Below, in pieces: positions 29,212 to 59,963 of a DNA stretch of 64,000 bases. Every line of letters starts with the position of its first letter. The first letter of the stretch is position 1. A program made the translations under genes and the position numbers. Source of the stretch: Lachnoclostridium sp. UBA1175 (GTDB lineage Bacteria; Bacillota; Clostridia; Lachnospirales; Lachnospiraceae); NCBI GenBank assembly GCA_002311665.1, contig DBYX01000008.1:27268-91267 (forward strand). The letters are read 5' to 3'. The notes beneath the pieces were generated by a model. The model made no database searches. It worked only from the letters and a program-made list of their open reading frames with translations, and was not told the origin of the DNA.

Positions 29212-30285
29212 TTATAATATTATATTATTGACCCACGTTGTAACATCTCTATCTGGCATGCCAGGTCTACAAGAATTAATCATGTGTGCCCACATAACGC
29301 TTTCTCTGAAAGGACTACTCATAGATGCGACTCGGAAATAAGCTTTTTCTTCCTTTGCTTGTTCATCCAGTGCTATATCCGCCAGATCGATTAAAGATAA
29401 TGACTTCAAGTCTATCGTCATATACGGAATTTTCGTCGGTAACTCGGGCAAAGGAACCTTTGCATAATTGTATCCTGTGTGAATATATCTGGTAACTAAG
29501 TTATGCAATTCTTCACCACTTGGCATATTCCCAGAAGAATAATATAAATCTTTTGCCGCTTTACACTCGGCAACCAGAATTTTCTTGTTAGGCTTGGCGC
29601 GAGCCATATCGCAGGAAGGCGTAAGAACCACGCAGTACTGAGTTGCCTTTGCTATAGAAGAGCAGTTATTATTATTATTCTTTCTAAGGATATCAGCCGC
29701 CATTAAAGTCTTACTAATCGGAGGATATTCATATTCCATCCAAGCGGGAGGGAAAAAATCTTCCTCATCTTTGGGGAATGCGCTTTGAATTCTTTTTCTA
29801 AGCATATACTTCACTATATCAACATCAAGATTATTGATTGAAAAGTAATATGCCATTGCCTTGGCCGAAAGCAGAAGCGAACTGTTAAGTTCTTTCTTGG
29901 ATTCTTTTACAGCTTGTATATATGGTTCCCATTGTTCGATTTTGTCGATAACTACTTGTTCATCGCCTTTTGGGAGAATCTCAATCATCGGGTTTCCTTC
30001 TGCAATACTAACCACATCGTCTGATATCGTGGATGCAATTGCAGAAAAAACAATTACAGGAACAAAATCGTTTTCGTATAACGCCTTAAAAATCGGATCC
30101 CCTTCATGTGTGTTTTCAGCGTCATACATCCAATCCATTACTACCAAGTCGGGATTGTACAGCAGTAATTCTTTTGGTGCCTCCTGGAAAGTACAGTTCT
30201 TGTAATCCCAATCACCCTTATCTTCCACATAATCCATGATTCCTTGTACAGCCTCTTGCCGATCTTCAATAAAAAGTATTTTCAT
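29212..30285 (-). CDS. Receiver (REC) domain protein with uncharacterised ~230-aa C-terminal domain (possible PD-(D/E)XK nuclease effector)
   Basis: 357 aa. KILFIEDRQ (E7-D8), DLVVMDW (D51), VIVFSA (S81), ILPKG (K106). The C-terminus has no HTH. YCVVLTPSCD(226)-x13-VAE(240)CK(242) resembles a restriction-endonuclease core. The ATG overlaps the kinase stop (ATGA). Confidence 0.7.
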   Translation of the reverse strand: MKILFIEDRQEAVQGIMDYVEDKGDWDYKNCTFQEAPKELLLYNPDLVVMDWMYDAENTHEGDPIFKALYENDFVPVIVFSAIASTISDDVVSIAEGNPMIEILPKGDEQVVIDKIEQWEPYIQAVKESKKELNSSLLLSAKAMAYYFSINNLDVDIVKYMLRKRIQSAFPKDEEDFFPPAWMEYEYPPISKTLMAADILRKNNNNNCSSIAKATQYCVVLTPSCDMARAKPNKKILVAECKAAKDLYYSSGNMPSGEELHNLVTRYIHTGYNYAKVPLPELPTKIPYMTIDLKSLSLIDLADIALDEQAKEEKAYFRVASMSSPFRESVMWAHMINSCRPGMPDRDVTTWVNNIIL

Positions 30286-32402
30286 TTTGTTTCACTAATT
30301 GGAAAATCCACCACCAGAGATGCTCCACCAATTTTCCCGGGTTGCAGAACACCAACTTTTCCTCCGTATGATTTTATGATTTCTGTGACAATTACTAACC
30401 CCATTCCAATTCCTTTAGGTTTTGAAGTCACTCCTGGTACAAATATCCTTTCCGAATCTTTTTCGGCAATGCCCTTGCCGGTATCATTAACGGAAACACA
30501 ACATCTATCACCCTTAATCTCCTCAATAACAACAGATATCTTTTTGCGAACATCATTATCCTGCATCCAATAACAAGAATTATCGAACAAATTGATAAAA
30601 ACTGTCTGCAACTCACTAATAGGCACTACCACAAGAATATCATCACTTATACCGTTTTCCAATTCGACTCCCTCGCACATTTTTTTTGCGGAAATCAATT
30701 CAAAACTCTGCCTTACCGCCTCTTTTAGACTTACAGGCGGAACACGTTTTCTTAAGTCTCGTTTATAAAGCGGTGCAAAACTGTTTGTCACCTCAAGAAT
30801 TCGTTTATGACTTTTCAATGAGCTTTCATAATATCTTTCTGTCTTTACATCCATCGGCAACGTTTTCTTTACTCGATCCAAAAAACGTTTTATCGTAGTC
30901 ATACCCGTTAGTATTTCGTGCATAATAACTATTGCTACAGATCCCAAAGAAGCCGTTTGAGCATAGTAAATAAGCCGCTCATTCAATTCCTGTAACTGTA
31001 GTTCATTCTTTTCATGAAAGTCCCTGATATACTTTACAAGTTCTTCTGCATTTGCACCGTTTTTTGCAGCATTTTCTACTGATTCTACCAATTCGCCTGA
31101 AGATAAGGGTGTGAGCATTTCTGATAAAGATTCACCCTTTTTCCCTTCTTCTTTATCATTATTCCGCTCCCGCTGCAATGCATCAACGACCTCTAACATA
31201 GTCTCTACAAACTGCTTATATTGAGCTGTATCGGCAAGTTTCTCTCTGTCGGTTGTATCTTTAATGTCTGGGTTTCTTTCATTACTTATTTGAACTATCC
31301 CAATAATCTGATTAGTGCTCAGTCTACGTCCTATTTGACTTATTCGCTTGGCATCCAATCCCAGCCAGTCTCTACCTGCTTCAGACTTTGGCAAAACCAG
31401 CACCTTATCGCGATAAACAGAAATACCTTTATATAGTTTAATACTTGCTCTAATATCCCTTTTCCCAATTTCGAAGCGGTCAGACACCCCCTGAAGGCTC
31501 TCAGCGTCCATATCCCAAGCCCTCAATTCAAAGGAATAGGGCCCCGCAGAATATTTTTTTAGCTCTTTTTGATCGTGCAATAAATCTGCATTATTGTAGT
31601 TTTCAGCAGTCCACTCTATAGTTCCGCTGTTTTCTCTTTTTCTGTTTCCCTCTTCAAAATAATACTTGTATTCTATAGTGCCTTTTTCATTTACCTCTCC
31701 GATTATTTTATACGTTGGATTACCAATAAAGTTCTTGGATTCAACACGTATTCCTTCTGTATCACCTAGTGCTGTAACAAAAACATTGAAATCATTTATT
31801 TCCTCAAAAGGCGAAATCAACCGGGATAACTCATTCATAAGATCAGCTAACTTTTCACGATTGTCCCAATTGTCATTTAGATCTTGAATAATAATAGTGG
31901 TTCCTACACTCTCTACACTGTCTAGTACTCTCAACTTCATTTTACAATCGTCTAGTTTTTCTATTTCATTAAAGAGTTCCCAGTCAAAATAAGCCTCCAT
32001 TGCTGGGCCATCCTCTGTCTTAGTAATCATAGTCATAGTACGACCAAGTCGAGCAGCCGAAAACCGACCCAAGCCTTTGTTCCCGGAAACAATTCGTGTA
32101 TGTTCCACCCCGTCTATTACTCTTTTTACGTATGGATTATTCTTTTTGTACGGTGTTGCTATTGTCGCCCAGGCATTAACAATCACGTCCTTTGTCATCC
32201 CGTGACCATCATCCTTAATTACAATTCTCGGATTTCCATCCTTATCCTTTTCAAATATCAAGTTTACTGTTAGTGCATACGCATCATAAGCGTTCTTCAC
32301 CAGTTCTAATATCGCAACACTGTCACTGGTTACTAATTCTTCGCCAAATGCCGCGAATGCTCGCGGATGAATCTTTATATTAATGCTTTCTTCTTTATTC
32401 AC
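30282..32402 (-). CDS. Soluble hybrid protein: N-terminal GHKL (HATPase_c_3/MORC-like) ATPase module + C-terminal histidine kinase core (HisKA + HATPase_c)
   Basis: 706 aa, GTG start with RBS GGAGGTGA, no TM spans. N-terminal ILELVKNAYDA / KDDGHGM / GNKGLGRFS. C-terminal H-box TASLGSVAIVIMHEILTGMTTIKRFL, N-box INLFDNSCYW, G1 VNDTGKGI, G2 KPKGIGMGLVIV. Confidence 0.8.
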   Translation of the reverse strand: MNKEESINIKIHPRAFAAFGEELVTSDSVAILELVKNAYDAYALTVNLIFEKDKDGNPRIVIKDDGHGMTKDVIVNAWATIATPYKKNNPYVKRVIDGVEHTRIVSGNKGLGRFSAARLGRTMTMITKTEDGPAMEAYFDWELFNEIEKLDDCKMKLRVLDSVESVGTTIIIQDLNDNWDNREKLADLMNELSRLISPFEEINDFNVFVTALGDTEGIRVESKNFIGNPTYKIIGEVNEKGTIEYKYYFEEGNRKRENSGTIEWTAENYNNADLLHDQKELKKYSAGPYSFELRAWDMDAESLQGVSDRFEIGKRDIRASIKLYKGISVYRDKVLVLPKSEAGRDWLGLDAKRISQIGRRLSTNQIIGIVQISNERNPDIKDTTDREKLADTAQYKQFVETMLEVVDALQRERNNDKEEGKKGESLSEMLTPLSSGELVESVENAAKNGANAEELVKYIRDFHEKNELQLQELNERLIYYAQTASLGSVAIVIMHEILTGMTTIKRFLDRVKKTLPMDVKTERYYESSLKSHKRILEVTNSFAPLYKRDLRKRVPPVSLKEAVRQSFELISAKKMCEGVELENGISDDILVVVPISELQTVFINLFDNSCYWMQDNDVRKKISVVIEEIKGDRCCVSVNDTGKGIAEKDSERIFVPGVTSKPKGIGMGLVIVTEIIKSYGGKVGVLQPGKIGGASLVVDFPISETK

Positions 32403-32522: not shown

Positions 32523-33704
32523 TTATTTCTCAACGGGCTTTTCACTACTATCTGTCAAATAGACTAGTTGGTCATATATAAACTCTGCCATCGTTTCTAT
32601 AACTGGAATCGAAACCGAATTCCCAAACTGTTTATATTTCTGCCCTTCAGGTATATTTTCAGGAAAAGAGAATCCCTCAGCTCCCGTTATAGGATCGACA
32701 AATCCATATCCTATAAACCCTTGAAGCCTTCCCCATTCAGTAGGAGTCATCATTCGAATATTTTTTTTATTTATCCCCCCTTTTTTCTTTAATGTTTTTT
32801 CTTCCTCATACGTATGAACCGGCATCTTTTGTATAACAAGATTTCGTTCCTTCCCGGAACCCCCAGTCGCCATTATAGTATTGGCATACTCCCGATTATG
32901 TTCTCGATTGTTTAGAACATAGTAACCGAACCCATTTCCATGTTCTTTTTGTCGTCTCGCGTGCTTTTCCAACGTATCCAGATAAGTTGCTGACAGATAG
33001 TATTTCAAATCAACTGACGCCTCTAAGATTTCGTTCAAATTCTTATTTAGGTACGGATGATCCAAAAGCCGCTGGCTTAGCTGTGATGGCAATTCATTTA
33101 CAAATCCCTCTGAATCCAATCGTGCTCCATACAAGTCTCTATTAAAAGCAATAAAATACGCACGGGGGCGATTCTGGGGCAACCCAAAATTTTTCGTGTT
33201 TCTTACAAACGATTTTTTATCATAAACCAACTCTCCATCATCTTCCTGAACAACCCCAATGACTTTATAGTTCAATTTCTTCTCTATCGTATCTATAATA
33301 ACCTTTATCGTTCTTTTCTTATCGTGAGATACGATATTCTGAACATTCTCCAAAAAAATAGCCTTGGGTCTACTTAATTCGACAATCTGTGCGATATGAA
33401 AAAAAATAGTGCCTTTTGTTAAATCACTAAATCCATCTAGGTTTCCCTGACTACTGAATGGTTGACAAGGGAAACCTGCCATTAGCACATCATACTTACA
33501 ATGAGACACCTTCTCTTTGAATTCGTCCGATGTCAGGTCATTTCTGGGGTCATCCCCAAACAAATGCTCATATGTCCTCGCCGCATATTCATCGACCTCT
33601 GCGGAGAGGACATTAACAAAATGTCCGGTTAATTCAAATCCTCTCCTAATTCCGCCGATTCCCGCACATAAATCTATTGTTCTATACATTTCCTTGTTTC
33701 TCAC
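32523..33704 (-). CDS. dcm: DNA (cytosine-5)-methyltransferase
   Basis: Motif I DLCAGIGG, IV GFPCQPFS, VI FLENVQN, VIII QNRPRAYFIAF, X QFGNSVSIPV. The start is GTG 33704 or ATG 33689. Confidence 0.95.
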   Translation of the reverse strand: MRNKEMYRTIDLCAGIGGIRRGFELTGHFVNVLSAEVDEYAARTYEHLFGDDPRNDLTSDEFKEKVSHCKYDVLMAGFPCQPFSSQGNLDGFSDLTKGTIFFHIAQIVELSRPKAIFLENVQNIVSHDKKRTIKVIIDTIEKKLNYKVIGVVQEDDGELVYDKKSFVRNTKNFGLPQNRPRAYFIAFNRDLYGARLDSEGFVNELPSQLSQRLLDHPYLNKNLNEILEASVDLKYYLSATYLDTLEKHARRQKEHGNGFGYYVLNNREHNREYANTIMATGGSGKERNLVIQKMPVHTYEEEKTLKKKGGINKKNIRMMTPTEWGRLQGFIGYGFVDPITGAEGFSFPENIPEGQKYKQFGNSVSIPVIETMAEFIYDQLVYLTDSSEKPVEK

Positions 33705-33707
33705 ATT

Positions 33708-34625
33708 CTAGTTTATTATTTCACCTATTATTCCATCTAGAGTAACTGTATATGTGATGTTCATAACACCTTCCGGCAAATCTCCTCCGATAAACGAAGA
33801 CCGTCTGATTGCCGGAAAGTTCTCATCGATAAGATACTTTGTAACAGCTATAATGGCATAGTTTCTTTTTCGTGCTGTCTTCCCCTTTTCCAACCCGAGT
33901 TTACTCAGTTTTTCATTCAATCCGGAAGAACTATATCCAAGTTCTTCCAAATCTTGAACCAAACTGTTAATACTGATTCCCTCTTGTGCTGATTCGAACT
34001 GACAAAGCATTAGATAGAGTTTTGCTCCGTCCGGAGGATCCAGTTGGAACAAATTACTGAGGGTTATTTGCTTTTTGTTTCTTGCTGTAGTTGATTTAAC
34101 TTCCGCATAATAACCACCGCAATCTATATCATATGTCGCTCCGTTAGGACCGTTCCATTCTGCCTGCTCTCCGTGTTCGGCAAGATACTTTAAAACCCAC
34201 AGTTCTCCAAGAACATCGTATGCGCGAAAATCAACATTCTTGTTGCCGAGTAATTCCCTCCATCGAGCCCACCAAGCCAGCGGATTGCTCTCCAGTTCTC
34301 TTCGCAATTCTCCGTTCTGTCCCGGAGTTATCATCTCGGCACACAATGCCGAAAACGGCTCGATTATGTCTTCTTTATCACTGGTTAAAAACAGAAAATT
34401 CTTTTCGGTTTCTCCATTTAATACTCTTTTATCTGTGTATAGGTGGGCTCCCGAAAAATACTCCGAAATATCCTCGTCCGTTTCTATCGGTACTGCCACT
34501 CCGTACTCAGAGCGATTTTTCAACGTCCAGGTCTCGTACCCCTCTTTTGAAAGACTCACCACGCTCATAAACATGCCGGAAGGTGTTCCCGCCCAATTAT
34601 TCATTAGTTCTTCTGTCAACATCAT
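33708..34625 (-). CDS. PD-(D/E)XK motif protein (putative restriction endonuclease component)
   Basis: 305 aa. ATYDID-x8-AEVKST core, typical of the 'PD-(D/E)XK motif protein' that accompanies Z1/GHKL/dcm clusters. 3 nt from dcm. Confidence 0.7.
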   Translation of the reverse strand: MMLTEELMNNWAGTPSGMFMSVVSLSKEGYETWTLKNRSEYGVAVPIETDEDISEYFSGAHLYTDKRVLNGETEKNFLFLTSDKEDIIEPFSALCAEMITPGQNGELRRELESNPLAWWARWRELLGNKNVDFRAYDVLGELWVLKYLAEHGEQAEWNGPNGATYDIDCGGYYAEVKSTTARNKKQITLSNLFQLDPPDGAKLYLMLCQFESAQEGISINSLVQDLEELGYSSSGLNEKLSKLGLEKGKTARKRNYAIIAVTKYLIDENFPAIRRSSFIGGDLPEGVMNITYTVTLDGIIGEIIN

Positions 34626-35358
34626 CGATTTCTATGGAAAGTTGCCTGAAAAGCATTCCCAAATATCCTTTCTCCGCATCTTTTACAAGCGCGGGTTCTG
34701 TAGTTCTGCAGTTAACCAGGTTCTGCTTTTGAATAGTATTGAAGAGGTCTGTGTTTTTGTTCTTCACACGAGAATAATCATACATTAGCTGCCGGTATAA
34801 CGCCAACCTGTAACCTTGTCCTGTTCGTTCAATAAGATCACTTATTGTATCAACCCCGAATCTGCGAAGCACATCATATGTCTCGGCTTCTGAACCTTGC
34901 CAGGAAAGAAAAATATACCACCACAGCGTTTTGAGCCAAATTCTTCGTGTGTGCGAGTAAAATCTCTTATGATTAATATGTCCGCCCTGTTCCAGTATCT
35001 CTTTTTCCGGAGTCGGGTATCTTTCATAAGTAATATCTGGGAACACTTTGCAAGACAGGTAACGCCATATATCATCATCACTCGCTAATACAAAGGAAAA
35101 ACCGTTCGCTGGATTGAACTCCCTATATAACGCGAATCCGACTTTTAAATCCGTTTCATACCATCCAAATGGTTTTGATTCTTTATAAACGGCAATAACC
35201 TTGTTTCTTAACTCATTATATTCAAAACTGAAATCGTCGACAATATTGTTCTTCCATTTGGCAATCAACTCGTCAAATAACGGTGCAGACAATTTGTCAA
35301 TATCATCGATCAAATGCTTTGCTTGGTCCTTTGTAAGTTTTTTGGTCGGAATCATCAA
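34597..35358 (-). CDS. Hypothetical protein (253 aa), no recognisable domain
   Basis: Long ORF with island-like codon usage. ATGA overlap with the upstream gene, and 8-29 nt overlap with the downstream gene. Confidence 0.6.
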   Translation of the reverse strand: MMIPTKKLTKDQAKHLIDDIDKLSAPLFDELIAKWKNNIVDDFSFEYNELRNKVIAVYKESKPFGWYETDLKVGFALYREFNPANGFSFVLASDDDIWRYLSCKVFPDITYERYPTPEKEILEQGGHINHKRFYSHTRRIWLKTLWWYIFLSWQGSEAETYDVLRRFGVDTISDLIERTGQGYRLALYRQLMYDYSRVKNKNTDLFNTIQKQNLVNCRTTEPALVKDAEKGYLGMLFRQLSIEIDDVDRRTNE

Positions 35359-36284
35359 TCATCGCCTCCGTTAATCATATCAGCAACATTCATCCAAATA
35401 GTTTTATGCATCCTTTCTTCCGTAGAAAAATCAATGTCCGTTTTGCAACTGTCTTTAAAATAATAAAGTATTTTGCTGATGCTTCCTTCCTCCAAATCAA
35501 CATCATTAATGGTGTTTGCAAGGCAACCGCAGTCCGATACCTTCCTATACAGCATCACATAAACCGTCGTTATGATATCTATCAAGACATCAGCATACTT
35601 TACCGTCTCACCCATTTTGGGACACAGTTCATATGCTGTATTCAGATAAATACAAAGACTATCTTCATCAAACAAATCTTTTTGGGGTTCACTCCAATCA
35701 GACAATTCCAGCCACCACATAGGAAGTTTCTTATCATTTATCTCCGCAATAGGGAACTCCATGTACATGCTTCCGAGATCAAGATGAACCTCATCCAGAA
35801 CACCTACCTTAACACCTTCATCGTTCATTAAAGATTCCTCGCCCAAAAGAATCTTTTCGGCGGCTTTTTTGATATACAGTTGAGTCTCGAGGCATAAATC
35901 CCCTTTGATTGTGCCGGGTTCAAACAAATAATCAAACTCGTACACACTAGATGCTTCATTCCTGTAAGTGTTCCCTGGAAGAATAGTACCCATTTGCTTC
36001 AGTGTTTTATTAGTCCAAATAATGCAAATTCCAAGCTCCGCATCTTCACACGCGATGCCCGATTTTCCATACAAGTATTCCGGATACTCAATGACAATAC
36101 TTCGTCTTATTCTCAAACCATCTCGTTCGATTCTCCAGGTATCATCATCGAATTTGACTACATTCTTGCCTTTTCCGATAAGCCTGCAGTCAAGATCATT
36201 AACGTTGTAACTGTATATATACGATGTCAATGAGAACCCTGCAGTTTCCAATAATTCATCTGTTAATGTCGGGTAAAAAAACAT
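35355..36284 (-). CDS. Hypothetical protein (309 aa), no recognisable domain
   Basis: Long ORF with island-like codon usage. It lies 17 nt downstream of the GHKL gene and overlaps the next gene by 4 nt. Confidence 0.6.
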   Translation of the reverse strand: MFFYPTLTDELLETAGFSLTSYIYSYNVNDLDCRLIGKGKNVVKFDDDTWRIERDGLRIRRSIVIEYPEYLYGKSGIACEDAELGICIIWTNKTLKQMGTILPGNTYRNEASSVYEFDYLFEPGTIKGDLCLETQLYIKKAAEKILLGEESLMNDEGVKVGVLDEVHLDLGSMYMEFPIAEINDKKLPMWWLELSDWSEPQKDLFDEDSLCIYLNTAYELCPKMGETVKYADVLIDIITTVYVMLYRKVSDCGCLANTINDVDLEEGSISKILYYFKDSCKTDIDFSTEERMHKTIWMNVADMINGGDD

Positions 36285-36301
36285 GATCGTCGCTCTCCCG
36301 G

Positions 36302-38419
36302 TTATTTATTGAATTCCTCAAGTATCTTATCAGACTTCATTTCCTTTAGTGTGAAACAATACTTTTTATCAGATGAAGTCAAAACAAGTCTTCCTGTAAC
36401 AATCGCATTTGTAATCTCGTTTTTCACTCTGATACCAAACGCGCTTCCTTCCTTTGTGTAAAGCAGTTCCAATTGCGTATAAGAGTTCTGAATCTGTCTG
36501 TTGTCAGGGCCGCAACTCGCCTCAATCTTTTCGGTTTTTCCCAGATCAACCGAATACGTTTTGCAATTACAGATAAGCGGAACCGCAATCGGAAATGCCG
36601 TACCGATATCAGATGCCCAAGTTTTAGCATCAACAAATCCTACCTCTGATTCAACAAACAGCCCTATAAGCGTTGACTTCAATTCGTTTTTGAATGTCAT
36701 TTTAAAGTCCATAGAAACACTGTTTCCATCAAACGTACTCGGTGAGAACTCCAGTATAAAATTACTGCTTTTTCCTCCTCCGCCTCCTGCGCCACCCGAT
36801 CCGGCTCCTCTTCTCTTGCCATAACCGAGTTTCGGCAACAATCTGTGCCCCAGCTTGCTGGAAAGTCTGCTGGCCGCTCCGGAAAGACTCGATACATCCT
36901 GCTTTTTGTAACAGTTATTTATCTTCTTGACGAGCTGATTCTTTATATTTGTGATTATCGTCTGCTTTGATTCATCATTCCAATCCATGTGGTCGGATTT
37001 TTCGCATCTTCTTAAGTACTCACCGAAATCGTTCTTTGCTAATCCGCTATCCCAATAAACACGCTTCACCTGAAGGGCACAATTCGGAACAAAGAAAACA
37101 AACAAAAAACTATCATCTCCCTCTGGCTTAACCAATCCCTTTGTCCAGTCCCCATCGACTTTATAATCAAGAACCACTCCTGCGGCTCTCGCAAACATAA
37201 CTATCGGATCATTATTAGTGAGCGTATTAAACATCCGAAGGTATGCTTTGGGCGGTATTATAGTACCGGTATTGCTTAGCTTCGAACTACTGACAACTAC
37301 AGATGCCGCATAGCCTGCCTGTCCGCCTTCGATTTTATTTGACGGTATTTGCACGCACTTAATATCACCGAATTTTGCCGAGTAATAGTCTTGACGTCCG
37401 TATTTATTTGCACTGAGAGCAGCAGTATACAGCTCTTGAATCAAAAGAAACAGCAAACGCATATCCTGTATCCTGAGCGGATCGCCGTTAACTCTTACGA
37501 CCAGCCTTTTTTGATCGGAATACGCTTTCAAGTTTTTGTTGTCAAGTTTCGGCGCATACCACTTCTGTGCAGCAAGTTTTGTATATTCGACAATGTCATC
37601 CTTAAACGAACACATTGCGATAACATCGTCTGAAATATCACAATTCTCAGGGAAGATGCCTTCCATTAGCCTTCTTTTGTCAATGTACGGTATGATAATC
37701 GAAGTGCCTGTTTCATCCTCACCAAACGGTGCAATTCCAAAAATATCCAGTATCTCCGATATCTCCTTTTCATCGGTTAACGGACCGATCTCATCGTCTC
37801 GATTACCATACTTCATTCCCCACCATGCTCTTCCGATTGAATCTTTGCGAATTTTGGTAAGAAGAGCATCCTGACTGCCTTCTCTTTCGACCAAAGCAAC
37901 TATAAGACGTGATTCGTAGCCGGTATCTATTTTAATGTGCGAATAAAAAACTACCAGCCCTATTCCCACTCTGAAATAAACGCTCTTTCCGTAGCCCCAG
38001 CTTCCTCCTGCTTTTCCGCCGTCACTGTTCGTTTGCTCTTTACCAGTATCGAAAACTAGTTTAAAAAAGTTTCCATGATCATTCGGGTCAATCTCACCGA
38101 CTTTTGTTTTTCCGGTTAAGCCAGATGTTTTCAGATCTCGTATTTCGAGATAATCCGCAGTAGCTGAAGGATACTTCTCATCCAAAATCACACCGATATC
38201 CTTCAACACCCGATTTAGTTTTGACGGACTGAATTCACTATAATTAAAGTTTACGCAGAAGAAGTTTTCAGGTTCGTTCAACGAAGCGTCCGAACTGTTC
38301 TGTATTGCCTCCCGAACAAGCAAGTCAACATCGGGAATATGGTCATTCTGCAATGCCTTCAGGGCTCCGCTTCCATATGACGAATTAATCGTTGTTCCTA
38401 AAATGCAACTGTCAAGCAT
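36302..38419 (-). CDS. GHKL-superfamily (MORC/Hsp90/sacsin-like, HATPase_c_3) ATPase
   Basis: 705 aa. Bergerat motif I LLVREAIQNSSDA, motif II-like IRDLKTSGLTG, motif III GGSWGYGKSVYF. Gly-rich GKRRGAGSGGAGGGGGK linker. 8-nt overlap with Z1. Confidence 0.75.
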   Translation of the reverse strand: MLDSCILGTTINSSYGSGALKALQNDHIPDVDLLVREAIQNSSDASLNEPENFFCVNFNYSEFSPSKLNRVLKDIGVILDEKYPSATADYLEIRDLKTSGLTGKTKVGEIDPNDHGNFFKLVFDTGKEQTNSDGGKAGGSWGYGKSVYFRVGIGLVVFYSHIKIDTGYESRLIVALVEREGSQDALLTKIRKDSIGRAWWGMKYGNRDDEIGPLTDEKEISEILDIFGIAPFGEDETGTSIIIPYIDKRRLMEGIFPENCDISDDVIAMCSFKDDIVEYTKLAAQKWYAPKLDNKNLKAYSDQKRLVVRVNGDPLRIQDMRLLFLLIQELYTAALSANKYGRQDYYSAKFGDIKCVQIPSNKIEGGQAGYAASVVVSSSKLSNTGTIIPPKAYLRMFNTLTNNDPIVMFARAAGVVLDYKVDGDWTKGLVKPEGDDSFLFVFFVPNCALQVKRVYWDSGLAKNDFGEYLRRCEKSDHMDWNDESKQTIITNIKNQLVKKINNCYKKQDVSSLSGAASRLSSKLGHRLLPKLGYGKRRGAGSGGAGGGGGKSSNFILEFSPSTFDGNSVSMDFKMTFKNELKSTLIGLFVESEVGFVDAKTWASDIGTAFPIAVPLICNCKTYSVDLGKTEKIEASCGPDNRQIQNSYTQLELLYTKEGSAFGIRVKNEITNAIVTGRLVLTSSDKKYCFTLKEMKSDKILEEFNK

Positions 38420-41204
38420 CTACGTATTCCTCTCTGATTTTTATTCTAAGTGACTTTGCATGGCTCTCACCGATACTGTCACCTGATACAATAATGCTTA
38501 TTCCGATAATATCACATTCTGTATTCAACGGCACTCTGTGAGTAGAATTGGCGCGAGGAGTACCGCCGTCTTTTTTGATTCGATATATCAATAAAAGAGG
38601 GATATCCTCAAGATTATAGTTTGCACGTTCTGCTATAACATCTTTTTTTTTCTTTATGACCGCTTTTATCGCTTCTTTCTGTTCCGGGGTCATCAATGAA
38701 ATATTCGCATCACTTAACGCATCCACACCAGAACGTAACGAACCGATATCTACATAGTCCTTTTCCTTTTTTCTGGTACGCTCAATAACGCCCGCCGTGA
38801 TTCCTTCCGTAATAACCCATGGATTTTCATTGTTGTCTCCGTCAACAACTGCAACATTCCAATTCACAAATCTTCCTTCTTTGTTCATTGCCTCTATCCA
38901 CTGAGAAAAATAAGGCAAGTTAGTATACAGAGAAGAATGCTTGGAAACAATAAACCTGCTTAAAAATCTGTCCCTTATCTCTGCATAAGGTATTTCATCC
39001 CATATCCATGCTTTTGCGGTGTCCGAACGTCTCGGCCGTTTCTTTTTTGCCAAATCTGCTACGTATCCCACAGTTGTACACAAGTTCGATCTGATTTGTG
39101 CCCCATCTTCAAAATCGGTGGTTTCATAGCTGTCTCCGCAAAAATCAAAGTCGTCATACTCAGCCATCTGACCTTTACGTTTTGATGTTATTCTGAACTT
39201 AGCAATCTCGGGAATATTACGGATTCTCGGTCCGAATTTCGAGGGAGAAACTCCTTGTTTCATAAATCTCTCTACTTCTCGCTTGAGATCCATGTCAACC
39301 TTTGTCAAAGCTTCAAACTTTTCCGTTACGGAATCCGTCATCCATATCCTTTGTAACAACTCATAACCTTTTCGATATCCAAACCATCTGGCCATTTGCA
39401 TAAGCGTATCCGCAAGGTTCGAGTTGCGAGAGAAATAAGTACATACAAGACCGTCAATCGTCAATCCTCGCGACAACGTATTTCCACCTATAACTATAAA
39501 TACCGGCGCCTTGCTCATTGCCTTCAATTGCTCATCGGTTGGATAAACAATTCTCAAATATGTCCCTTCTTCCGCTTCTTTATTTGCGCGACAATTGTCC
39601 ACGCACAAATGAATGCCTTCACCATACTCCAGGTTTTTATCATCTCCGAGTGCAATATTCCTTACATCCCCAAGTAATTCTATGATTTCACACTTCAGTT
39701 CAATAAACGCAGGATAGTCCTCAACCACCTCTCCAATGAAACCATATTCGGGATTAGCCGTTACTAAATCTTCCTTTGTTACACTCTTAATTTCCGCATC
39801 GTATATGTTTTCACACGTTAGCAAAACCTCGCTGGTTTTCGACAACCAGTTCTGAATTCTTTCATAAACAACAAAATGATATTTCTGTATTGCTGCCGTA
39901 TGAATCAACATACTGATCGGCTTTTTCCAAGCTCGCTTTCTCAATAAAGCAACTGAACACAAGAACCAGGCTATAGATTCCTTAAAGCTCCCCGGCAGAT
40001 CGAGTATTTGCTCTTTATGCAGTTTCATCAACTGCTTTTCATCTTCAGATGATATTCTTCTGGTTATAGGAAATCCGGGACAATCTTCTTCATCATTGCC
40101 AAAAATAACCTTCGCTCCGAAATACTCATGTGCCTCCGGTAATGTACAGATAAAATCCTTAGGATACAGAGATTCTCCCGGCACCTCATTTAACACATTA
40201 GCATATGGAGTTGCCGTGTAACTGATATAGTTCATTGATTGAAACTTCGCTTTGCCGGGAGGCGTTGATCCATCTGACATCTTCCCATTAACCAGATTGA
40301 CAATCATTCTATTTATTGCACATCGTTCCTGTTCTTCATCAGGAGTAATTTCGGCGGTATTAATACTTGCCTGATCCGCCTCATCATCAATAACAACTAT
40401 ACGCAATTTACTTGTTCTCTTTGGATCACTGTATAACCAGTCGATTAACCGTTCAAGACGTGTCCTGTTCTTAAGGCATACCGTAAGATATCTGTTCGCG
40501 TAGTTTTTGCTCCCAGACAATGTATTTAATTTCATTTCATCTGCTAAAAACCCCTTATCATCAGCGGTAAAATCAAGGACTTTCCAAAGAACGCCTCCTT
40601 CGCTGTTTCGAAGGTCTTTTTTGAACCTATCACGAGTCTGTTTTCTTAAGTTATCAATTGTGCCTGAAAGAATAATAAAAAAGTTCCAGTCATAATCAGC
40701 CGCCATACTGATTAATCCTTCCATGTTCGCCGTTTTGCCCGATTGGACACTACCGGTAACAAGACCCTTAACCTCACCGTAATTTCGAGTATCTTCCAGT
40801 AAATGATTGAGTATCCAATGACAACTCTTCTGTAAATTTGCTATTGATTCGGAACTCATCTTGTTTCTCAAATATGTCTTGTAATTCTCCCAAGATGACT
40901 CACGTCCGCAAGGAATGGGATGATGGTTTGAGAGCACTCCGTTATCAACAGCAATTACTTCTTCACCTTCAACTACGCTTACAATAACCACTATACTTTT
41001 GTAGTACTCAACAAAATCGAGCCACACTGCTCTGTTCATATTCAGCGGCCAAGATTCCTCATCAATCAAAAACCGCAATGCACTATCAAAATCCGAAGGT
41101 TCTACACATAATCCTTCGATTTCATCCCAGGTCTTGTTTTTATTCAGCATTGACGCTATCCATTCTTTACACGGCTGAAATGCTTTGCTTTCATAATCTA
41201 CCAT
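38412..41204 (-). CDS. Z1-domain protein (SF2 helicase-like ATPase fused to Z1 domain)
   Basis: 930 aa. Walker A TGSVQSGKTAN, DEAD-like VVIDDEADQASI, IGGNTLSRGLTIDGL and MQMARWFGYR (Z1 signature). Confidence 0.85.
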   Translation of the reverse strand: MVDYESKAFQPCKEWIASMLNKNKTWDEIEGLCVEPSDFDSALRFLIDEESWPLNMNRAVWLDFVEYYKSIVVIVSVVEGEEVIAVDNGVLSNHHPIPCGRESSWENYKTYLRNKMSSESIANLQKSCHWILNHLLEDTRNYGEVKGLVTGSVQSGKTANMEGLISMAADYDWNFFIILSGTIDNLRKQTRDRFKKDLRNSEGGVLWKVLDFTADDKGFLADEMKLNTLSGSKNYANRYLTVCLKNRTRLERLIDWLYSDPKRTSKLRIVVIDDEADQASINTAEITPDEEQERCAINRMIVNLVNGKMSDGSTPPGKAKFQSMNYISYTATPYANVLNEVPGESLYPKDFICTLPEAHEYFGAKVIFGNDEEDCPGFPITRRISSEDEKQLMKLHKEQILDLPGSFKESIAWFLCSVALLRKRAWKKPISMLIHTAAIQKYHFVVYERIQNWLSKTSEVLLTCENIYDAEIKSVTKEDLVTANPEYGFIGEVVEDYPAFIELKCEIIELLGDVRNIALGDDKNLEYGEGIHLCVDNCRANKEAEEGTYLRIVYPTDEQLKAMSKAPVFIVIGGNTLSRGLTIDGLVCTYFSRNSNLADTLMQMARWFGYRKGYELLQRIWMTDSVTEKFEALTKVDMDLKREVERFMKQGVSPSKFGPRIRNIPEIAKFRITSKRKGQMAEYDDFDFCGDSYETTDFEDGAQIRSNLCTTVGYVADLAKKKRPRRSDTAKAWIWDEIPYAEIRDRFLSRFIVSKHSSLYTNLPYFSQWIEAMNKEGRFVNWNVAVVDGDNNENPWVITEGITAGVIERTRKKEKDYVDIGSLRSGVDALSDANISLMTPEQKEAIKAVIKKKKDVIAERANYNLEDIPLLLIYRIKKDGGTPRANSTHRVPLNTECDIIGISIIVSGDSIGESHAKSLRIKIREEYVDA

Positions 41205-41205
41205 C

Positions 41206-41619
41206 TCATCTCTCCTTCAATGCTTTTTCGATGATATCTGCACACTCCGAACAATGTTTCTTGATATCGTTACCCCAAAAACGAATAACCTTCCAGCCAT
41301 TCGCTTCCAATTGTTCGTTTACTTCCGAATCTCTCTGCATGTTTCGTTCAATTTTGGGAATCCAAAAATCACGATTTGATTTAATATCGTTTTTTTGTTC
41401 TTCCCAATTATATCCGTGCCAGAATTCACTGTCACAAAATACTGCTACCTTTTTTCCGAGAAAAGCAATATCAGGGTGTCCGAACACTTTATTGGTGTTT
41501 TTCTGATATCTTATTCCTCGATTCCACAATTCTTTTCGCAGCATAAGTTCTATCTGTGAATTCTTATTGTGAACGGCTTTCATATTTTTCTTTCTTTGTT
41601 CGGGTGTATGATTATCCAT
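41206..41619 (-). CDS. vsr: Very short patch repair endonuclease
   Basis: Start trimmed to MDNHTPEQRKKNMKAV. GHPDIAF...AVFCDSEFWHG...FWIPKIERNMQRD...GWKVIRFW. The stop is 1 nt from the Z1 start. Confidence 0.9.
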   Translation of the reverse strand: MDNHTPEQRKKNMKAVHNKNSQIELMLRKELWNRGIRYQKNTNKVFGHPDIAFLGKKVAVFCDSEFWHGYNWEEQKNDIKSNRDFWIPKIERNMQRDSEVNEQLEANGWKVIRFWGNDIKKHCSECADIIEKALKER

Positions 41620-41918
41620 ATTTTGTTTCGCTGCTCTTTCGAATCCATTCTCACATTGTGATAATAAATCATTTACAATATTCGAGCACCATCTTTTGCT
41701 CACTATTATTGCAAATAGCACGTATCAACTCAAAGTAGACTTTTCCGTTCTTGACAATCAAAAGAATAGCTTATCCGTTCGTCATTCTACACAAACACAT
41801 TGGATTGAACCATCAAAAGCAAAACCTTTTGGGTTATTGTACTATAGTCAATTATTTTACATCAATAAGCTATTGCCTTTTTCCTGTACATCAGCCGTCT
41901 TTCCTTCAACCCGCACCA

Positions 41919-47013: not shown

Positions 47014-48021
47014 TTACGAAAGCTTCCTCACCTCGTAAAATTCATCGTACAGCTCCGTCACCCTGCGCCCGTCGATCTTCATCTTCCCGCACAGATCCGC
47101 AAAATCCCGGTAGAACCGGCCATCGCACTCGATCGCCGCCCCGCGAACGCTCTCGTACTGCGACGCACCTGTTCCGGCGCTGCCGGTTTCCGCGGCGGTT
47201 GTCCCGGCCGTACCGGTTTCCGCGGCGGTTGTTCCGGCCGCGCCGCCGTTCGCGAAGTCCGCGTTCACGTCGAGCACGAGACTCTTCCCCGCGCGCGTTA
47301 TGCCGTAGCGCCCCGGCGTCCGCGTCAGGTGGAAGAGGTCGTAGAAATCCGCCTCATCCTCGTCGAACGGCGTCAGCTCGTACAACAGCCGCACGATCCG
47401 ACCCATCACCTCGATGTGCCCCCAGAAAGCGTCGTAGGACAGCCGCTCCGCGAGAAATGCTTTCGCTCGCCGCAGCAGCGCCACCGCCACCGCCGACTCG
47501 CCCTGCTCCGCGCGGATGCCCGCCAGGCGATACGCGATCTCCGGGTACGGCTCGCTAAGCCGCCTCGCGCTCTTCACCAGCCCGTACGCCTCCTCGATCA
47601 TCTTGCGGTACCGCGCCTCGTCCTTCTCCACGAAGCACCCGAACCGGTACATATCGGCAAGCTTGTAGCGGCACCACAGGCTCCCCTCGTTGCCGAACCG
47701 GTCGGGCTCCGCCCCCTTGGTGAAGCACTCGAACGCCTTCCGGTAATCCTTCACGCCGTTCTGCCCGAAATAATACATATACCCGAGCTCCTCGAACGCC
47801 GGCCCGAACCCGCACTCCGCCGCCATCGTCAAATATTTCTCCTCGAGGTCGAACCGCTTCCGGTCGCAATAGAACCACGCCAGCTCGGCCATATACTTCG
47901 GCTCCCCCGTCGACTCGATCAGCATCGCCATCGCCTCCGTGTACGCAAACTCCTCGTCGGCCGACGGCACCGACAGCTCGTGAAAATCGTCCCTGATCGC
48001 CAGCGCATCCTTGAATTTCAT
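47014..48021 (-). CDS. Sel1/TPR-like repeat protein
   Basis: Start trimmed to MKFKDALAIRDDF (RBS GGGAGGAAAA). Sel1-like LGYMYYFGQNGVKDYRKAFECFTKGAE and YKLADMYRFGCFVEKDEARY. Confidence 0.7.
   Translation of the reverse strand: MKFKDALAIRDDFHELSVPSADEEFAYTEAMAMLIESTGEPKYMAELAWFYCDRKRFDLEEKYLTMAAECGFGPAFEELGYMYYFGQNGVKDYRKAFECFTKGAEPDRFGNEGSLWCRYKLADMYRFGCFVEKDEARYRKMIEEAYGLVKSARRLSEPYPEIAYRLAGIRAEQGESAVAVALLRRAKAFLAERLSYDAFWGHIEVMGRIVRLLYELTPFDEDEADFYDLFHLTRTPGRYGITRAGKSLVLDVNADFANGGAAGTTAAETGTAGTTAAETGSAGTGASQYESVRGAAIECDGRFYRDFADLCGKMKIDGRRVTELYDEFYEVRKLS
47183..47242 (-). repeat. Two tandem 30-nt coding repeats
   Basis: CCGGTTTCCGCGGCGGTTGTCCCGGCCGTA / CCGGTTTCCGCGGCGGTTGTTCCGGCCGCG, 3 mismatches, encoding GTAGTTAAETG x2 in the Sel1-repeat protein. 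Confidence 0.85.
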
Positions 48022-48228
48022 AGCATTTTCCTCCCTTTCCCGGGCCATCTCTCCCGTCCTCTGCCCCAAGGATACTCTCGAATGTGTACAATAAAAACGC
48101 CGCAAATAAAGGCGCGCCCCGGCGATCGGCCCGGAAACCCGGAGCTCATCACCGAAAGACGCGCCTTGACGGCCCTCGGCCGCCGGCTATAGCAGCCGCG
48201 GCAGCCTCAGAATGTGTTGTGGGTCAAA

Positions 48229-51200
48229 TTATTTCTTGAATTTGATATCCATAATGGTCGAGAATGTCGTCTTGCCTCCTCTGCCATAGAAGAATTCTTC
48301 GTAGCAGATGTACATTTTCCGACCCCAGGTCGATACCTCAAGGAAGTGCTTGTCAGGGCAAGCCGGGTTCTCATACACACCCGTTACAACCCAGTAATGC
48401 TCGTCTGCCCATCCGCCTTGCGTGAGAGTATTCCCGTTCTGATAGTAGAAGCGCAATCTTGCTCCATCTTCTCGATACAGCGCCATTATGACAGGAATGT
48501 CCTGTTTCAGAATACTCTTGATCTTATTGTAGCAAGCATACATATCGAGTGTGCTAGCTACTGCATCCTCAACATCCCACCATATAGCATTGCAACCTCT
48601 GCTACTCAGCTTATTCTGAAGGAATTTGCATATGCTCACGATACCATCGCCGTGCGACCAGTTCCTTTCAATCCAATCTTGCGTACTTCCGGTCATTCGG
48701 AGATACTCTTTGAGCAATTCCTGTACGGAATCTACCGTGAAAATATGGTTGTTACCGCTCAAGTAGAGGTATGTATTGACCGCTGCATAGATTCCGCAGG
48801 AGCCTTCTATGAATTTTTGATATTCAGCTCCATAGTATTCCTTGATCAATCGTGATGTCGCTCCATCGTCCCCGAACAAATTGTCAATAGCTGCAAACAA
48901 CTCAGTAAAAGTGACTTTTTCAATATTGTTGACGACGATTTCTCCGAGCTGATAGGTGTCCGGGTATTTTTCTGTCAGAAAACTCATCAATTGATTGTAT
49001 TTGAGTGGCATGAGGTGATGGAACAGATAATCCTTTAATCCGTTATTTGCACGGAGCTCATCTCTGACAGTATCTTCCATAAACGGATATCGGGTTATAA
49101 ACATCTCCCACGCCAGATCTGCACTATGATACTCAGCATAATGATAGTTTGCCTTATCGCCAAAGAAACCCTGATTGAAGCCATAATCGTTGGAATCACC
49201 CGGTGTTTCGGATGCGATGAAAGATTCGTCTTTCAATCCGGTCACCTGCGTATAACCTGTAAAATCATGGGTTCTTTTTTTATCATCATCCCTGCGTGTT
49301 GTGCCATAAAACTCAATGTTTTTCAGGACGATATAGGCTTCCCCGTCATTCCAGGTAAGGCTCCCTGTTACCGAATCTGCATGCCAGACTATCCTATCTT
49401 TACCGGGAATGCAGTATTTTCCTTCCGGCATATTAATCTCCGTGTCGTACGCATAATACTTTTCCTCGGTATAATACTTCACTTCATTTTTCGTGGTCGT
49501 ATCAGGATCCGGGAAGTGGAACACAATCTTGCAATCCGCCATCTTTTCCCAAATTGCGTACAATGTAACATTTCCGGTTAGAGTAATTTCCCTGCCGGGG
49601 CCATACTTCACCGTGGTACTGTTTTTTGAAGTAGTCCAGCCTTTGAAACGATATCCGACCTTTCTGGGGCTTTCTGTATTGATCTGAACCGTTGTACCGT
49701 GCTTATAGGTTTTCTCCTCGAACTTCTTCGAATCGGTGACCTTTCCGCCGTTCAATACATACTTTACTTTGTACTTTTTGGGCACCCATACGGCATACAA
49801 TAAGATATCCTCATCCCACTCGTACGACCCGCCAATACTCCAAGTCGCTACTGTAGCATCGGATTTACGAGACCATCCGATGAAGTCATATCCCGTTTTC
49901 TGGAGTTCCATATCTGACAATGTCAGAGGCACGCCGGGCTGCTTGTACTGCGTTGCAGGCGCTTCGGAGCCACCGTTTGCATTGTATTCAACGCGATATC
50001 CATACTGCTCCCAGATTGCATAAAGATTAAGCTTAGCATTCTTTGTATAGGTATCCCCGGGCTGATAGTTCACATCGGTTTTGTTCGTGCTCCAACCCTT
50101 AAAGATATATCCCTCACGTGTCGGTTTCTTAGAGGACAGTTTGATGCTGACACCGGCAGTTTTAGTCTGATTCGCCGGTATGCTTGCAGAGTTCCCGCCA
50201 TTTGCGTTGTAGGAAATGAGATACAGATTTCTCGTCTTCTCCACCGCATCGCAGTAAGAGCACATATAACTTTCGACACCGACAGCATTTTTCGTAGGCT
50301 GCGTTGTAACAACCCAACGATAGGTGTGAGCGGTCGGCGGAATGTTGGCTTCCTTCTTGGTCGCCTTGCAACCGTCGTTGCTGCATCGGTAGTACGTATA
50401 ACCCCACGCAATGCAGTTTCCGGGCTCTGTATGATCCTCCACCCAGTTGTGTTTGCCCGTTGCCGGTATATCACGTCCGTTCGTGGAATGCTGCTCGCAT
50501 GCGCATTTGTACTCTTCCTTACCTCCGTAGTAGCAGGTAGGTTCTTGCACAACTACCCAGTGGGTTCCGACATGGCCGGTCGCCTTCTGGTCAATCTTAC
50601 CGCATCGTGTACACTTCTTGTCCTCCGTGCAGGTCGCTGCGTTTCGGTTCCAGTTATGCCCGAGAGCTCCCTGAATTACGTAACCGCAGGAAGTGCACCG
50701 GCGATCCTGTGTACAGGTCGCTGTCGGTATGTCGAAGTGATGACCGTAGCAAGGAATCGTTTCTGTCTGGCCCACATAGCCGCAGGTAGCGCATCGATTC
50801 ACCTTCTGTCCGTTGGTCGTGCAGGTCGCCGGTGTGGTGCATACCCACTGCATCGCGTGCCCCTTTGCAGGCTCGGCAACCACACCGCATCTGGTGCAGG
50901 ATTTGGACGCCGTGCAGGTCGCGGAACTTCTGTTCCAGCTGTGCCCGAGAGCTCCCTGGATCACGTATCCGCAATATATGCATTTCCGCGCGGCTGTACA
51001 GGTCGGCGAAGATCTGTCGTAAGTGTGCGGCGTCCTCGGGATCGTCTGTGAGTTGATGCAGGAACCGCAAGCACACTCATAGTTTCTGTACCCCTCGGAA
51101 GTGCAGCTTGCCGCCTTCTTGACGACCCACCGGTACGAGTGCGTGTGCGCCTTCGCCTCCGCAGGCTTGACGGCGTACAGGACACCGCCGGCCAGGAGCG

Positions 51201-58828: not shown

Positions 58829-58862
58829 CACCCGATTCAAATTCATAAGCTCCAAAAAACAT

Positions 58863-58906
58863 CACCGCCGCCCGACTGCATAACGCAACGGACGGCGGTG
58901 TTTTTT
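58863..58906 (+). terminator. Rho-independent terminator
   Basis: CACCGCCG (58863-58870) ... CGGCGGTG (58893-58900) followed by TTTTTT. Confidence 0.85.
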
Positions 58907-59255
58907 GTACTCATTTTCCGAATAAAACATGGCTTTATGCGCCCCGCAGGGCCGGCTCAGAGTGACATAATCCAGGCGACTACGGCGATATAGTATATGA
59001 CGATCAGGGCCGCCGAGCAGCTTCAGCTATTACATCGCACATTACAGACGATCAGTATATTCCTTCAACAACCATAAAATGCAACATATCACTGCAATCC
59101 AATGCTTTTTCCTGGAATCAACACCTTAAGCCCCTTGTCCTCTGCACTAACAACCAATTGTTGGCCATCCCGATAATTGATATAATAAACAAACAAAAAC
59201 ACGCTTTGAAACAATACTCTTCCCTGTTGATTACCCACGGTTACACGAAAGGAAC

Positions 59256-59849: not shown

Positions 59850-59889
59850 AAAGAAAGCTAAATACAGTTTTCAAATATAACAAAACACC

Positions 59890-59917
59890 AACGGCCACCG
59901 GTTCCCCGGTGGCCGTT
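59890..59917. terminator. Terminator hairpin between convergent genes
   Basis: Perfect 12-bp stem AACGGCCACCGG / CCGGTGGCCGTT with loop TTCC. T-rich tail on the minus strand. Confidence 0.7.
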
Positions 59918-59963
59918 GTCATTCATCCTTATCCTTTTATCCTGTTCGTCCCTCACTGTTTTA

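Follow-up and report, generated by a model that had tools for sequence, protein, structure and literature searches.

We analysed a stretch of 64,000 nucleotides from Lachnoclostridium sp. UBA1175 (contig DBYX01000008.1, positions 27,268 to 91,267 of the forward strand), referred to below in its full length as the window, in which a gene for a soluble hybrid of an ATPase and a histidine kinase overlaps a gene for a receiver domain fused to an output domain. We favour the view, at a confidence that stops a little short of an even chance, that these two genes form a mobile module together with a C5 DNA methylase gene (dcm) and a gene for a very-short-patch repair endonuclease (vsr), and that this module follows restriction-modification logic with a His-Asp phosphorelay in place of the restriction endonuclease. 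The locus is a divergent member of a family that has been described by computation, and the observation is well beyond chance. The four genes, all within one low-GC island, are as follows.

29212..30285, minus strand: receiver-effector gene, 357 amino acids (aa), stop included
30282..32402, minus strand: kinase gene, 706 aa, soluble ATPase/histidine kinase hybrid, stop included
32523..33704, minus strand: dcm, C5 DNA methylase (PF00145, E=2e-66)
41206..41721, minus strand: vsr, very-short-patch repair endonuclease and first gene of the island (PF03852, E=6e-25; 67% identity to the vsr that immediately precedes dcm in the related locus L090)

The association of the kinase-receiver pair with a methylase was examined in 80 non-redundant loci from many phyla (Firmicutes, Spirochaetes, Fibrobacteres, Bacteroidetes, Acidobacteria, Chloroflexi, Planctomycetes, Desulfobacterota, Verrucomicrobia and Proteobacteria), in which kinase, receiver, methylase and Vsr genes were located with iterated hidden Markov models. 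The kinase gene lay immediately 5' of the receiver gene in 76 of the 80, the remaining four being accounted for by contig ends or split genes. Of the loci, 61 had 1.2 kb or more of sequence on each side of the pair, and every one of these had a C5 methylase within 5 kb, in 54 cases directly adjacent and on the same strand, and a kinase-receiver pair lacking a methylase was found in none. Over all 80 loci the adjacent methylase was downstream of the receiver gene in 53, upstream of the kinase gene, as in the window, in 19, and on both sides in 5. Vsr, the usual companion of C5 methylases, was encoded within 5 kb of the pair in 38 of the 61 loci. No other recurrent gene family within 4 kb was present in more than five of 62 loci, and no separate nuclease, antitoxin, small conserved partner or stand-alone receiver was conserved in the module across these 62 loci, which means that no separate nuclease is available to it. 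A first-pass annotation, made by a model from the sequence of the window, had suggested a possible two-gene system and had asked whether the pair travels alone or always with Z1/dcm; a C5 methylase is indeed always there, and the unit therefore has at least three genes, but no other neighbour is constant.

The partners also appear to have evolved together. Between pairs of loci, methylase identity tracked kinase identity with r=0.72 at full-length coverage, compared with r=0.89 for kinase and receiver. In the closest relatives of the window (L089 and L090) the kinase is 78%, the receiver 67% and the methylase 75% identical, and the methylase gene is directly upstream of the kinase gene. One methylase subfamily is common to 43 loci, and its target-recognition region is conserved as strongly as its catalytic motifs; this suggests a single conserved recognition sequence for that subfamily, as one would predict where a partner has to recognise that site too. 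Within the target-recognition region of this subfamily, which is spread over many phyla, we noted the pattern DVYGRMxW...SxSNGRxxHPxQxRxIS (for example in the methylase at 11068-12120 of L008, downstream of the receiver gene). Because the pair is never without a methylase, co-evolves with it and has no other conserved gene beside it, a dependency of the restriction-modification type is suggested, in which the methylase would protect against the activity of the kinase and receiver genes.

The kinase protein is a single polypeptide with two ATPase modules of the GHKL superfamily, separated by a middle region of its own. Its parts, read from the C-terminus of the protein to the N-terminus, lie as follows.

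30285..30992, minus strand: HisKA-type dimerisation and histidine phosphotransfer (DHp) domain plus catalytic ATP-binding (CA) domain, aa ~471-706 (H495-E496 in the H-box, N604/N608, D640xGxG in the G1 box, F654, G664xGxG in the G2 box)
30993..31802, minus strand: middle region, aa ~201-470, without family assignment (strongly conserved at aa 326-390, variable at aa ~255-280)
31803..32345, minus strand: N-terminal GHKL ATPase module of the MORC/MutL/Hsp90 type, aa ~20-200 (PF13589, E=6e-21; intact ATP-binding and catalytic motif set)

The translation contains ELVKNAYDA, DDGHGM, GNKGLGRFS, the H-box IMHEILTGMTTIKRFL, NLFDNSCYW, DTGKGI and GIGMGL, and Pfam recognised HATPase_c_3 at aa 28-144 (E=6e-21) and HATPase_c at aa 597-701 (E=2e-19). 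As a 40-sequence profile, the N-terminal module matched the GHKL domains of Hsp90 and MutL in the Protein Data Bank (PDB) with E~1e-7, and the first 200 aa of the kinase resemble the N-terminus of the BbrUII/HgiDII restriction-enzyme family (E=2e-17). Across 63 full-length homologues, E33 (the catalytic Glu), N37 (the Mg-binding Asn), D40, D64xGxG68 and the ATP lid G107xKGxGR113 are invariant or nearly so. The C-terminal part, from about residue 470 to 705, aligned with the cores of AtoS, ZraS and FixL, DHp included, in NCBIfam and the PDB (E down to 4e-27 and 5e-14). In the same 63 homologues the phospho-acceptor H495 is present without exception, E or D follows it at position 496 in 62, and N604, N608, D640xGxG644, F654 and G664xGxG668 are invariant or nearly so. 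A T or N occupies position 499 in 44 of them, which gives the H-E-x-x-T/N motif of HisKA kinase/phosphatases. Neither the kinase nor the receiver protein has a transmembrane-like segment, the highest Kyte-Doolittle averages over 19 residues (1.59 and 1.69) falling in charged beta strands. The first-pass description of a soluble 706-aa protein with two Bergerat-fold modules at 30282..32402 is thus borne out by its coordinates, by each motif it quoted, by Pfam and by conservation in the family, and its placing of a MORC/MutL-type ATPase in the sensor position agrees with the PF13589 match and the invariant catalytic motifs.

The middle region of 270 aa had no sequence match to any solved structure in the PDB. 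An S5-fold transducer domain, which follows the GHKL domain in MORC/paraMORC ATPases, was looked for here: the block at aa 326-390 is conserved, and no solved structure matches it in sequence. In seven of 40 homologues, sub-threshold matches to the winged-helix family Rv2175c_wHTH fell at aa ~300-342 (about 31377-31502 in the window); the best had E=4e-5 and 23.9 bits against a Pfam cut-off of 27.1 bits, and we regard them as a lead only. These matches, in homologues from L033, L036, L038, L045 and L066, overlap a conserved hairpin, GISVYRDxxLVLP. The conservation profile of the kinase contains no long hypervariable specificity domain.

The kinase gene starts with a GTG at 32402, 7 nt after a GGAGG ribosome-binding site and 120 bp downstream of dcm, and its TGA stop and the ATG of the receiver gene share the sequence ATGA, the overlap that the first-pass annotation had pointed out; the arrangement indicates translational coupling. 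The receiver protein belongs to a family of 109 clusters at 90% identity, all of about 360 aa, and divides into three parts.

29215..29745, minus strand: output domain, aa 181-357, with a predicted MazF/PemK-like barrel and C-terminal helices
29746..29961, minus strand: helical linker, aa 109-180 (AlphaFold2 secondary structure)
29962..30285, minus strand: receiver domain, aa 1-108 (E7/D8, D51, S81, K106)

On its own the window protein is weakly recognisable as a receiver: it had no Pfam match even at E<=10, and its best matches were PhoB (E=6e-4) and the VicR receiver (E=0.1). Its family context makes the identification solid. In 40 homologues D51 and K106 never vary, and conservation of D8 and S81 is 90% or more; Response_reg (PF00072) matched 23 of these 40 and Response_reg_2 (PF19192) matched eight, with a best E of 7e-6. 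The AlphaFold2 model (mean predicted local distance difference test, pLDDT, 87) matched the receivers VicR, KdpE and RR468 in Foldseek with template-modelling (TM) scores of 0.66-0.75. The canonical receiver with E7/D8, D51, S81 and K106 that had been read from the letters of the window is accordingly present. The model predicts helix alpha5 of the receiver to extend beyond that domain as a single helix of 33 residues (aa 109-141). The public Joint Genome Institute (JGI) call of this gene, 341 aa, begins 16 codons late (window 30238-30285; L093 5166-6191) and so removes the conserved E7/D8 acidic pocket; conservation from M1 onward across all homologues supports the longer ATG start.

The output domain has a set of invariants specific to its family. 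Over 55 sequences, down to 16% identity, D198, L221, T222, S224, C225, D226, R340 and P344 are invariant, and C241, E328 and G342 are at least 90% conserved. A separate AlphaFold2 model of aa 142-357 (pLDDT 88) was compared with the PDB in Foldseek, and the 50 best matches were all MazF (E from 2e-4, probability 1.0, target-normalised TM 0.6-0.7); against the viral BFVD library the best matches were PemK-like proteins and endoribonucleases. We therefore describe the domain as having a predicted MazF-like, toxin-like fold, and do not call it a MazF RNase. In a scan of 1.84 billion representative proteins the output domain alone had 324 relatives (representatives at 50% identity), nearly all of about 355-395 aa with the domain at the C-terminus. 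The one short relative inspected, P0241 (~200 aa), is a deletion remnant in which the kinase G2 box and the receiver domain have been lost. As the domain occurs almost only as the C-terminus of receiver proteins, it appears to be a dedicated receiver output. Pfam searches found no DNA-binding domain in the receiver protein, in agreement with the first-pass annotation. That annotation had also called the effector nuclease-like, from D226, E240 and K242. Of these three residues D226 alone is invariant; E240 and K242 differ freely among the homologues, and a PD-(D/E)xK reading was rejected for that reason. The predicted fold resembles MazF/PemK.

The pair is not undescribed, which the first-pass annotation had considered possible. 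Bellieny-Rabelo, Pretorius and Moleleki reported in 2021 'two-component system-like elements' made of a histidine kinase-like (HK-like) and a response regulator-like (RR-like) protein, for which Pfam has the families HEF_HK (PF19191) and Response_reg_2 (PF19192), and they also reported the linkage to C5 methylases and paraMORC ATPases (PMC8011034). In their scheme the HK-like protein consists of HATPase_c_3, a new DHp family (HEF_HK) and HATPase_c, and the RR-like protein carries Response_reg_2; the two were linked in 91.6% of cases over 644 regions, with C5 methylases, Vsr and restriction-modification domains nearby (PMC8011034). The authors proposed descent from paraMORC ATPases and a regulatory tie to restriction-modification; their study was computational only, stated that the receiver proteins carry no further known domain and did not analyse the output region (PMC8011034). 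On sequence grounds the window pair belongs to this family, as a divergent branch from gut Firmicutes. Its kinase is likewise soluble, with HATPase_c_3 followed by a DHp with His-Glu and by HATPase_c, the genes are adjacent, the receiver has no known output domain attached, and a C5 methylase and Vsr are neighbours. The window's two proteins differ in being unmatched by PF19191 or PF19192, and PF19191 is also not listed in the Pfam annotation of 120 kinase homologues. Membership of the window receiver rests on transitive homology, through full-length homologues (E down to 1e-70) of which some match PF19192. As far as we found, what is new relative to the 2021 paper is the obligatory, co-evolving methylase and the MazF-fold output; none of the papers that cite PMC8011034 or mention PF19191 or PF19192 concerns this system.

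We propose the following mechanism, in which we hold each separate step with less confidence than the overall logic. The C5 methylase would mark host DNA, and Vsr would repair the resulting T:G mismatches. The kinase would be a soluble dimer whose sensor consists of an ATP-driven clamp of the MORC/MutL type and the conserved middle domain. ATPases of this type clamp and manipulate DNA, and the sensor may engage DNA that is without the cognate 5-methylcytosine, be it DNA that invades the cell or the chromosome itself once the methylase is lost. Engagement would flip the DHp/CA core from phosphatase to kinase, H495 would autophosphorylate, and the phosphoryl group would pass to D51 of the receiver. 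Phosphorylation would then activate the MazF-fold domain, probably by letting receivers dimerise via the extended alpha5 helix. Activation of this kind is plausible, since MazF functions as a dimer and has its substrate groove where the two subunits meet. The activated domain might be a toxin that attacks either nucleic acid or an essential nucleic-acid enzyme, and the outcome might be growth arrest of infected cells, with an anti-phage effect, or killing of cells that have lost the module. Taken as a whole, a MORC-type clamp that reads methylation, hard-wired to a histidine kinase and passing its signal by a His-Asp relay to a MazF-fold toxin, such that the 'R' of restriction-modification would be a signalling cascade with abortive infection or post-segregational killing as its end point, is a specific version that we consider possible and distinctly more doubtful than the general logic.

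Several results weigh against the reading we favour. Pfam gave nothing significant for the output domain, either for the window protein (E<=10) or for 40 members of the family (E<=1), and PF02452/PemK was absent in all 40. A 55-sequence profile of the domain had no match in the PDB sequence library, NCBIfam did not recognise it, and with PADLOC the receiver protein and the 55 output-domain sequences gave only PDC-S31 at a sub-significant E=0.003. An hhalign comparison with a MazF profile gave a probability of 0.2%, the profile being shallow: it held 18 sequences at 96-98% identity, as the search had returned close relatives only, and its query was the B. subtilis MazF sequence, 97-99% identical to proteins named NdoA/MazF. 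It is thus the predicted fold that relates the output domain to MazF. No conserved equivalent of the catalytic Arg/Thr pair of MazF is evident, and RNase activity is therefore not implied; the sole invariant Arg, R340, lies in the C-terminal element, and there is none in the strand region where MazF has its Arg. On the sensor side, binding of DNA or reading of methylation by the kinase is our proposal, set beside winged-helix matches below threshold and a middle domain that matches no solved structure. In smaller clades, that of the window included, the pair is found with at least four further C5 subfamilies, and a sensor matched to sequence fits such variety less easily. In the literature we found no experimental study of any family member, a search that left most subscription papers outside and hence is no proof of absence, and PADLOC (2023) does not list the system, which was either never assayed or failed in screens.

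A different account of the same linkage is that the two proteins are a two-piece restriction enzyme, in which the output domain, or the middle domain of the kinase, is an unrecognised DNA endonuclease that cuts its unmethylated target once phosphotransfer licenses cleavage; defence would then be direct restriction and not growth arrest. The strict linkage to a C5 methylase and the co-evolution with its conserved target-recognition region would follow naturally, as would the homology of the N-terminal ATPase to the N-terminus of BbrUII/HgiDII and a module that contains no other conserved nuclease, and the output domain has an invariant polar set of its own (D198, T222, S224, C225, D226, R340 and E328), unlike MazF. 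We nevertheless think this account unlikely, since a known restriction-endonuclease fold or motif was not found, a PD-ExK-like triad is not conserved and the only structural relatives of the domain are toxins that cleave RNA or poison gyrase. To our knowledge there is also no precedent for His-Asp control of a restriction nuclease.

The kinase might instead watch over the methylase, in the manner of PrrC and EcoprrI, by monitoring the enzyme or its reaction (phage anti-restriction proteins, depletion of S-adenosylmethionine) and freeing the toxin when modification fails. Such a guard would more easily accommodate a C5 methylase that is always there while its subfamily changes, if the sensor reads a generic feature of methylases or methylation, and a kinase that has no long hypervariable specificity domain. 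Contact between kinase and methylase is unsupported by evidence, though, co-inheritance explains the co-evolution equally well, and a MORC-type ATPase as sensor is more readily tied to DNA than to a protein partner (PMC2292703); we rate the idea as quite improbable. Slightly less probable again is what the 2021 paper suggested, namely that the pair is a regulatory two-component system acting on the expression or the activity of nearby restriction-modification genes. The canonical chemistry of kinase and receiver is kept, and its authors report that homologues in Pectobacterium are up-regulated during stress (PMC8011034). Against it, the receiver protein has neither a helix-turn-helix nor another DNA-binding output, the predicted fold of its output domain is toxin-like, and the minimal unit holds nothing else to regulate; neighbours beyond the methylase and vsr vary from locus to locus, which leaves no constant regulon.

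The phosphorelay module that we favour is mobile and sits in an island that was acquired horizontally. The island covers ~29.2-42.1 kb of the window (13 kb) at 34-45% GC, compared with ~59% in the genome around it, and all its genes are on the minus strand; a contig from a cow-rumen metagenome carries the identical locus. A search for direct repeats on either side of the island yielded none that was convincing, promoter and terminator scans returned background levels only, and a tblastn search against PLSDB for plasmid carriage gave no match. At the downstream edge, a fusion of a Macro domain and a putative cyclase (PF01661 and PF04199; 27966-29108, minus strand) has host-like GC, and the host-like high-GC genes begin there. 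Patches of lowered GC (0.46-0.47) were also seen at 48000-50000 and 58000-60000 of the window. Between vsr and dcm lies one further element.

33708..41204, minus strand: cassette between vsr and dcm (Pfam and PADLOC matches MzaC 2e-59, MzaD 2e-4, PDC-M33A and PDC-M33C)

The cassette has five genes, which include a 705-aa GHKL-like protein (its sole match PDC-M33A, 9e-9), a DUF6339 protein, a DUF4420 protein with the weak MzaD match and a 309-aa open reading frame (ORF) without a match. It resembles the Mza and PDC-M33 candidate systems and fits neither cleanly. L089 has it in the same order, and L090 and L091 are without it.

The setting in other genomes is one of defence and mobility. McrBC, NgoFVII, LlaJI, Mrr, DISARM DrmE, AbiEii, HipA, relaxase/TnpV and conjugation genes were found as neighbours, and together with the low-GC acquired island they agree with the defence-island setting proposed at first pass. 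In three lineages a protein with an McrB-like AAA_5 domain and a DUF2357/PDDEXK_7 protein are encoded directly downstream of the module (L005 12183-16499, L089 11121-15363 and L090 6715-10963); the former has MrcB_N in L089 and L090 and is an unannotated 613-aa protein in L005. These genes are probably a methylation-dependent type IV system that travels with the module. Five loci (L001 7557-7838 on the minus strand, L019, L023, L024 and L026) have, between vsr and the kinase gene, a small ORF of 93-117 aa without a family match that runs on the opposite strand, and it is absent from the clade of the window. Decayed copies were also seen (L094 3-2404, L095 151-3443 and L096 80-706; further ones in L041, L056 and L085), in one of which a kinase without its G2 box is joined, through a deletion, to a 208-aa ORF consisting of the output domain only. 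In several metagenome-assembled genomes the kinase gene is split and the adjacent methylase intact, where assembly errors are possible. The decayed copies are reminiscent of the decay of restriction genes beside orphan methylases.

If the phosphorelay module works as proposed, it would represent a new wiring principle in bacterial immunity, in which 5-methylcytosine as the self mark is coupled by a phosphorelay to a toxin and not to DNA cleavage, and it would be the first link of epigenetic self/non-self discrimination to two-component signalling. It would also provide the first receiver-controlled member of the MazF/CcdB fold, a bacterial MORC-like ATPase that serves as a signalling sensor and hence a tractable bacterial model for nucleic-acid sensing by GHKL ATPases of the MORC type, and a function for PF19191, PF19192 and a gene family found in hundreds of genomes from at least ten phyla. 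The system is small (three or four genes) and offers clear sites for point mutants (H495, D51, E33, the TPSCD motif and R340), which makes the hypothesis directly testable. Should the model fail, the locus would still be a clean example of an already described pair without an assigned function.

Among known systems, MazF/PemK/Kid and ToxN/AbiQ have in common with the output domain a barrel that is predicted from the model; they differ from it in that no sequence homology is detectable and the catalytic Arg/Thr pair is not evident. ToxN and AbiQ are RNases of the MazF/Kid fold that serve abortive infection. Unlike MazF/PemK, the pair has no MazE/PemI-type antitoxin gene in the window or conserved nearby, and control would come from the fused receiver; the output domain also adds an insert helix and a C-terminal element, SPxRE...W...RPGxPxR. 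A local search of the 1.4 Mb of surveyed loci found no MazF genes.

The RNase PrrC is kept inactive by a restriction-modification enzyme. With PrrC-EcoprrI and with type II addiction the module may have in common a toxic activity tied to modification, methylation as the self mark and lethality of modification loss. PrrC-EcoprrI differs in its type I methylase, compared with a C5 enzyme here, in the anticodon-nuclease domain that the window pair does not have, and in working by direct complex formation and not by the phosphorelay proposed here. Type II restriction-modification systems likewise have a methyltransferase in the same gene cluster; of their endonuclease signatures (PD-(D/E)xK, HNH, PLD, GIY-YIG and similar), none was found in the kinase or the receiver protein. 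The paraMORC/MORC ATPases and the BbrUII/HgiDII family possess a homologous N-terminal GHKL module and the association with a C5 methylase and Vsr, but their partners are nucleases or helicases, whereas the ATPase in the window is fused to a histidine-kinase core; the 2008 survey of paraMORC by Iyer, Abhiman and Aravind does not mention kinase or receiver partners (PMC2292703). MADS was considered as a relative and rejected, as its 'kinase' sits in a BREX-like DNA-modification operon without a receiver, and WonAB and the Vibrio WASA paper proved unrelated to the pair.

Detocs, finally, shows that a relay from a kinase to a receiver-effector can work as an abortive-infection system (Rousset et al. 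2023; 10.1101/2023.01.24.525353), and the first-pass annotation had suggested that the pair may be Detocs-like. Membership did not hold. DtcA has a tetratricopeptide repeat (TPR) sensor, which the window kinase lacks, its N-terminus being a GHKL ATPase of the MORC type. The published detection rule requires DtcA, DtcB and DtcC (10.1101/2023.01.24.525353), and DtcB, the buffer receiver, has no counterpart in the window or among the conserved neighbours of the pair in the 62 loci, as that annotation had itself noted. The effector of DtcC is an ATP nucleosidase of the purine nucleoside phosphorylase (PNP) type, whereas that of the window has no PNP, Pfam or PADLOC match and is predicted to be MazF-like. 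Detocs is also not linked to a methylase, and the window-type pair always is. What stands is a relay that would drive an effector: in both, a histidine kinase signals to a receiver that carries a fused effector which is non-transcriptional and could stop the cell, in a gene set with a defence-island lifestyle, and the analogy to Detocs holds as one of logic.

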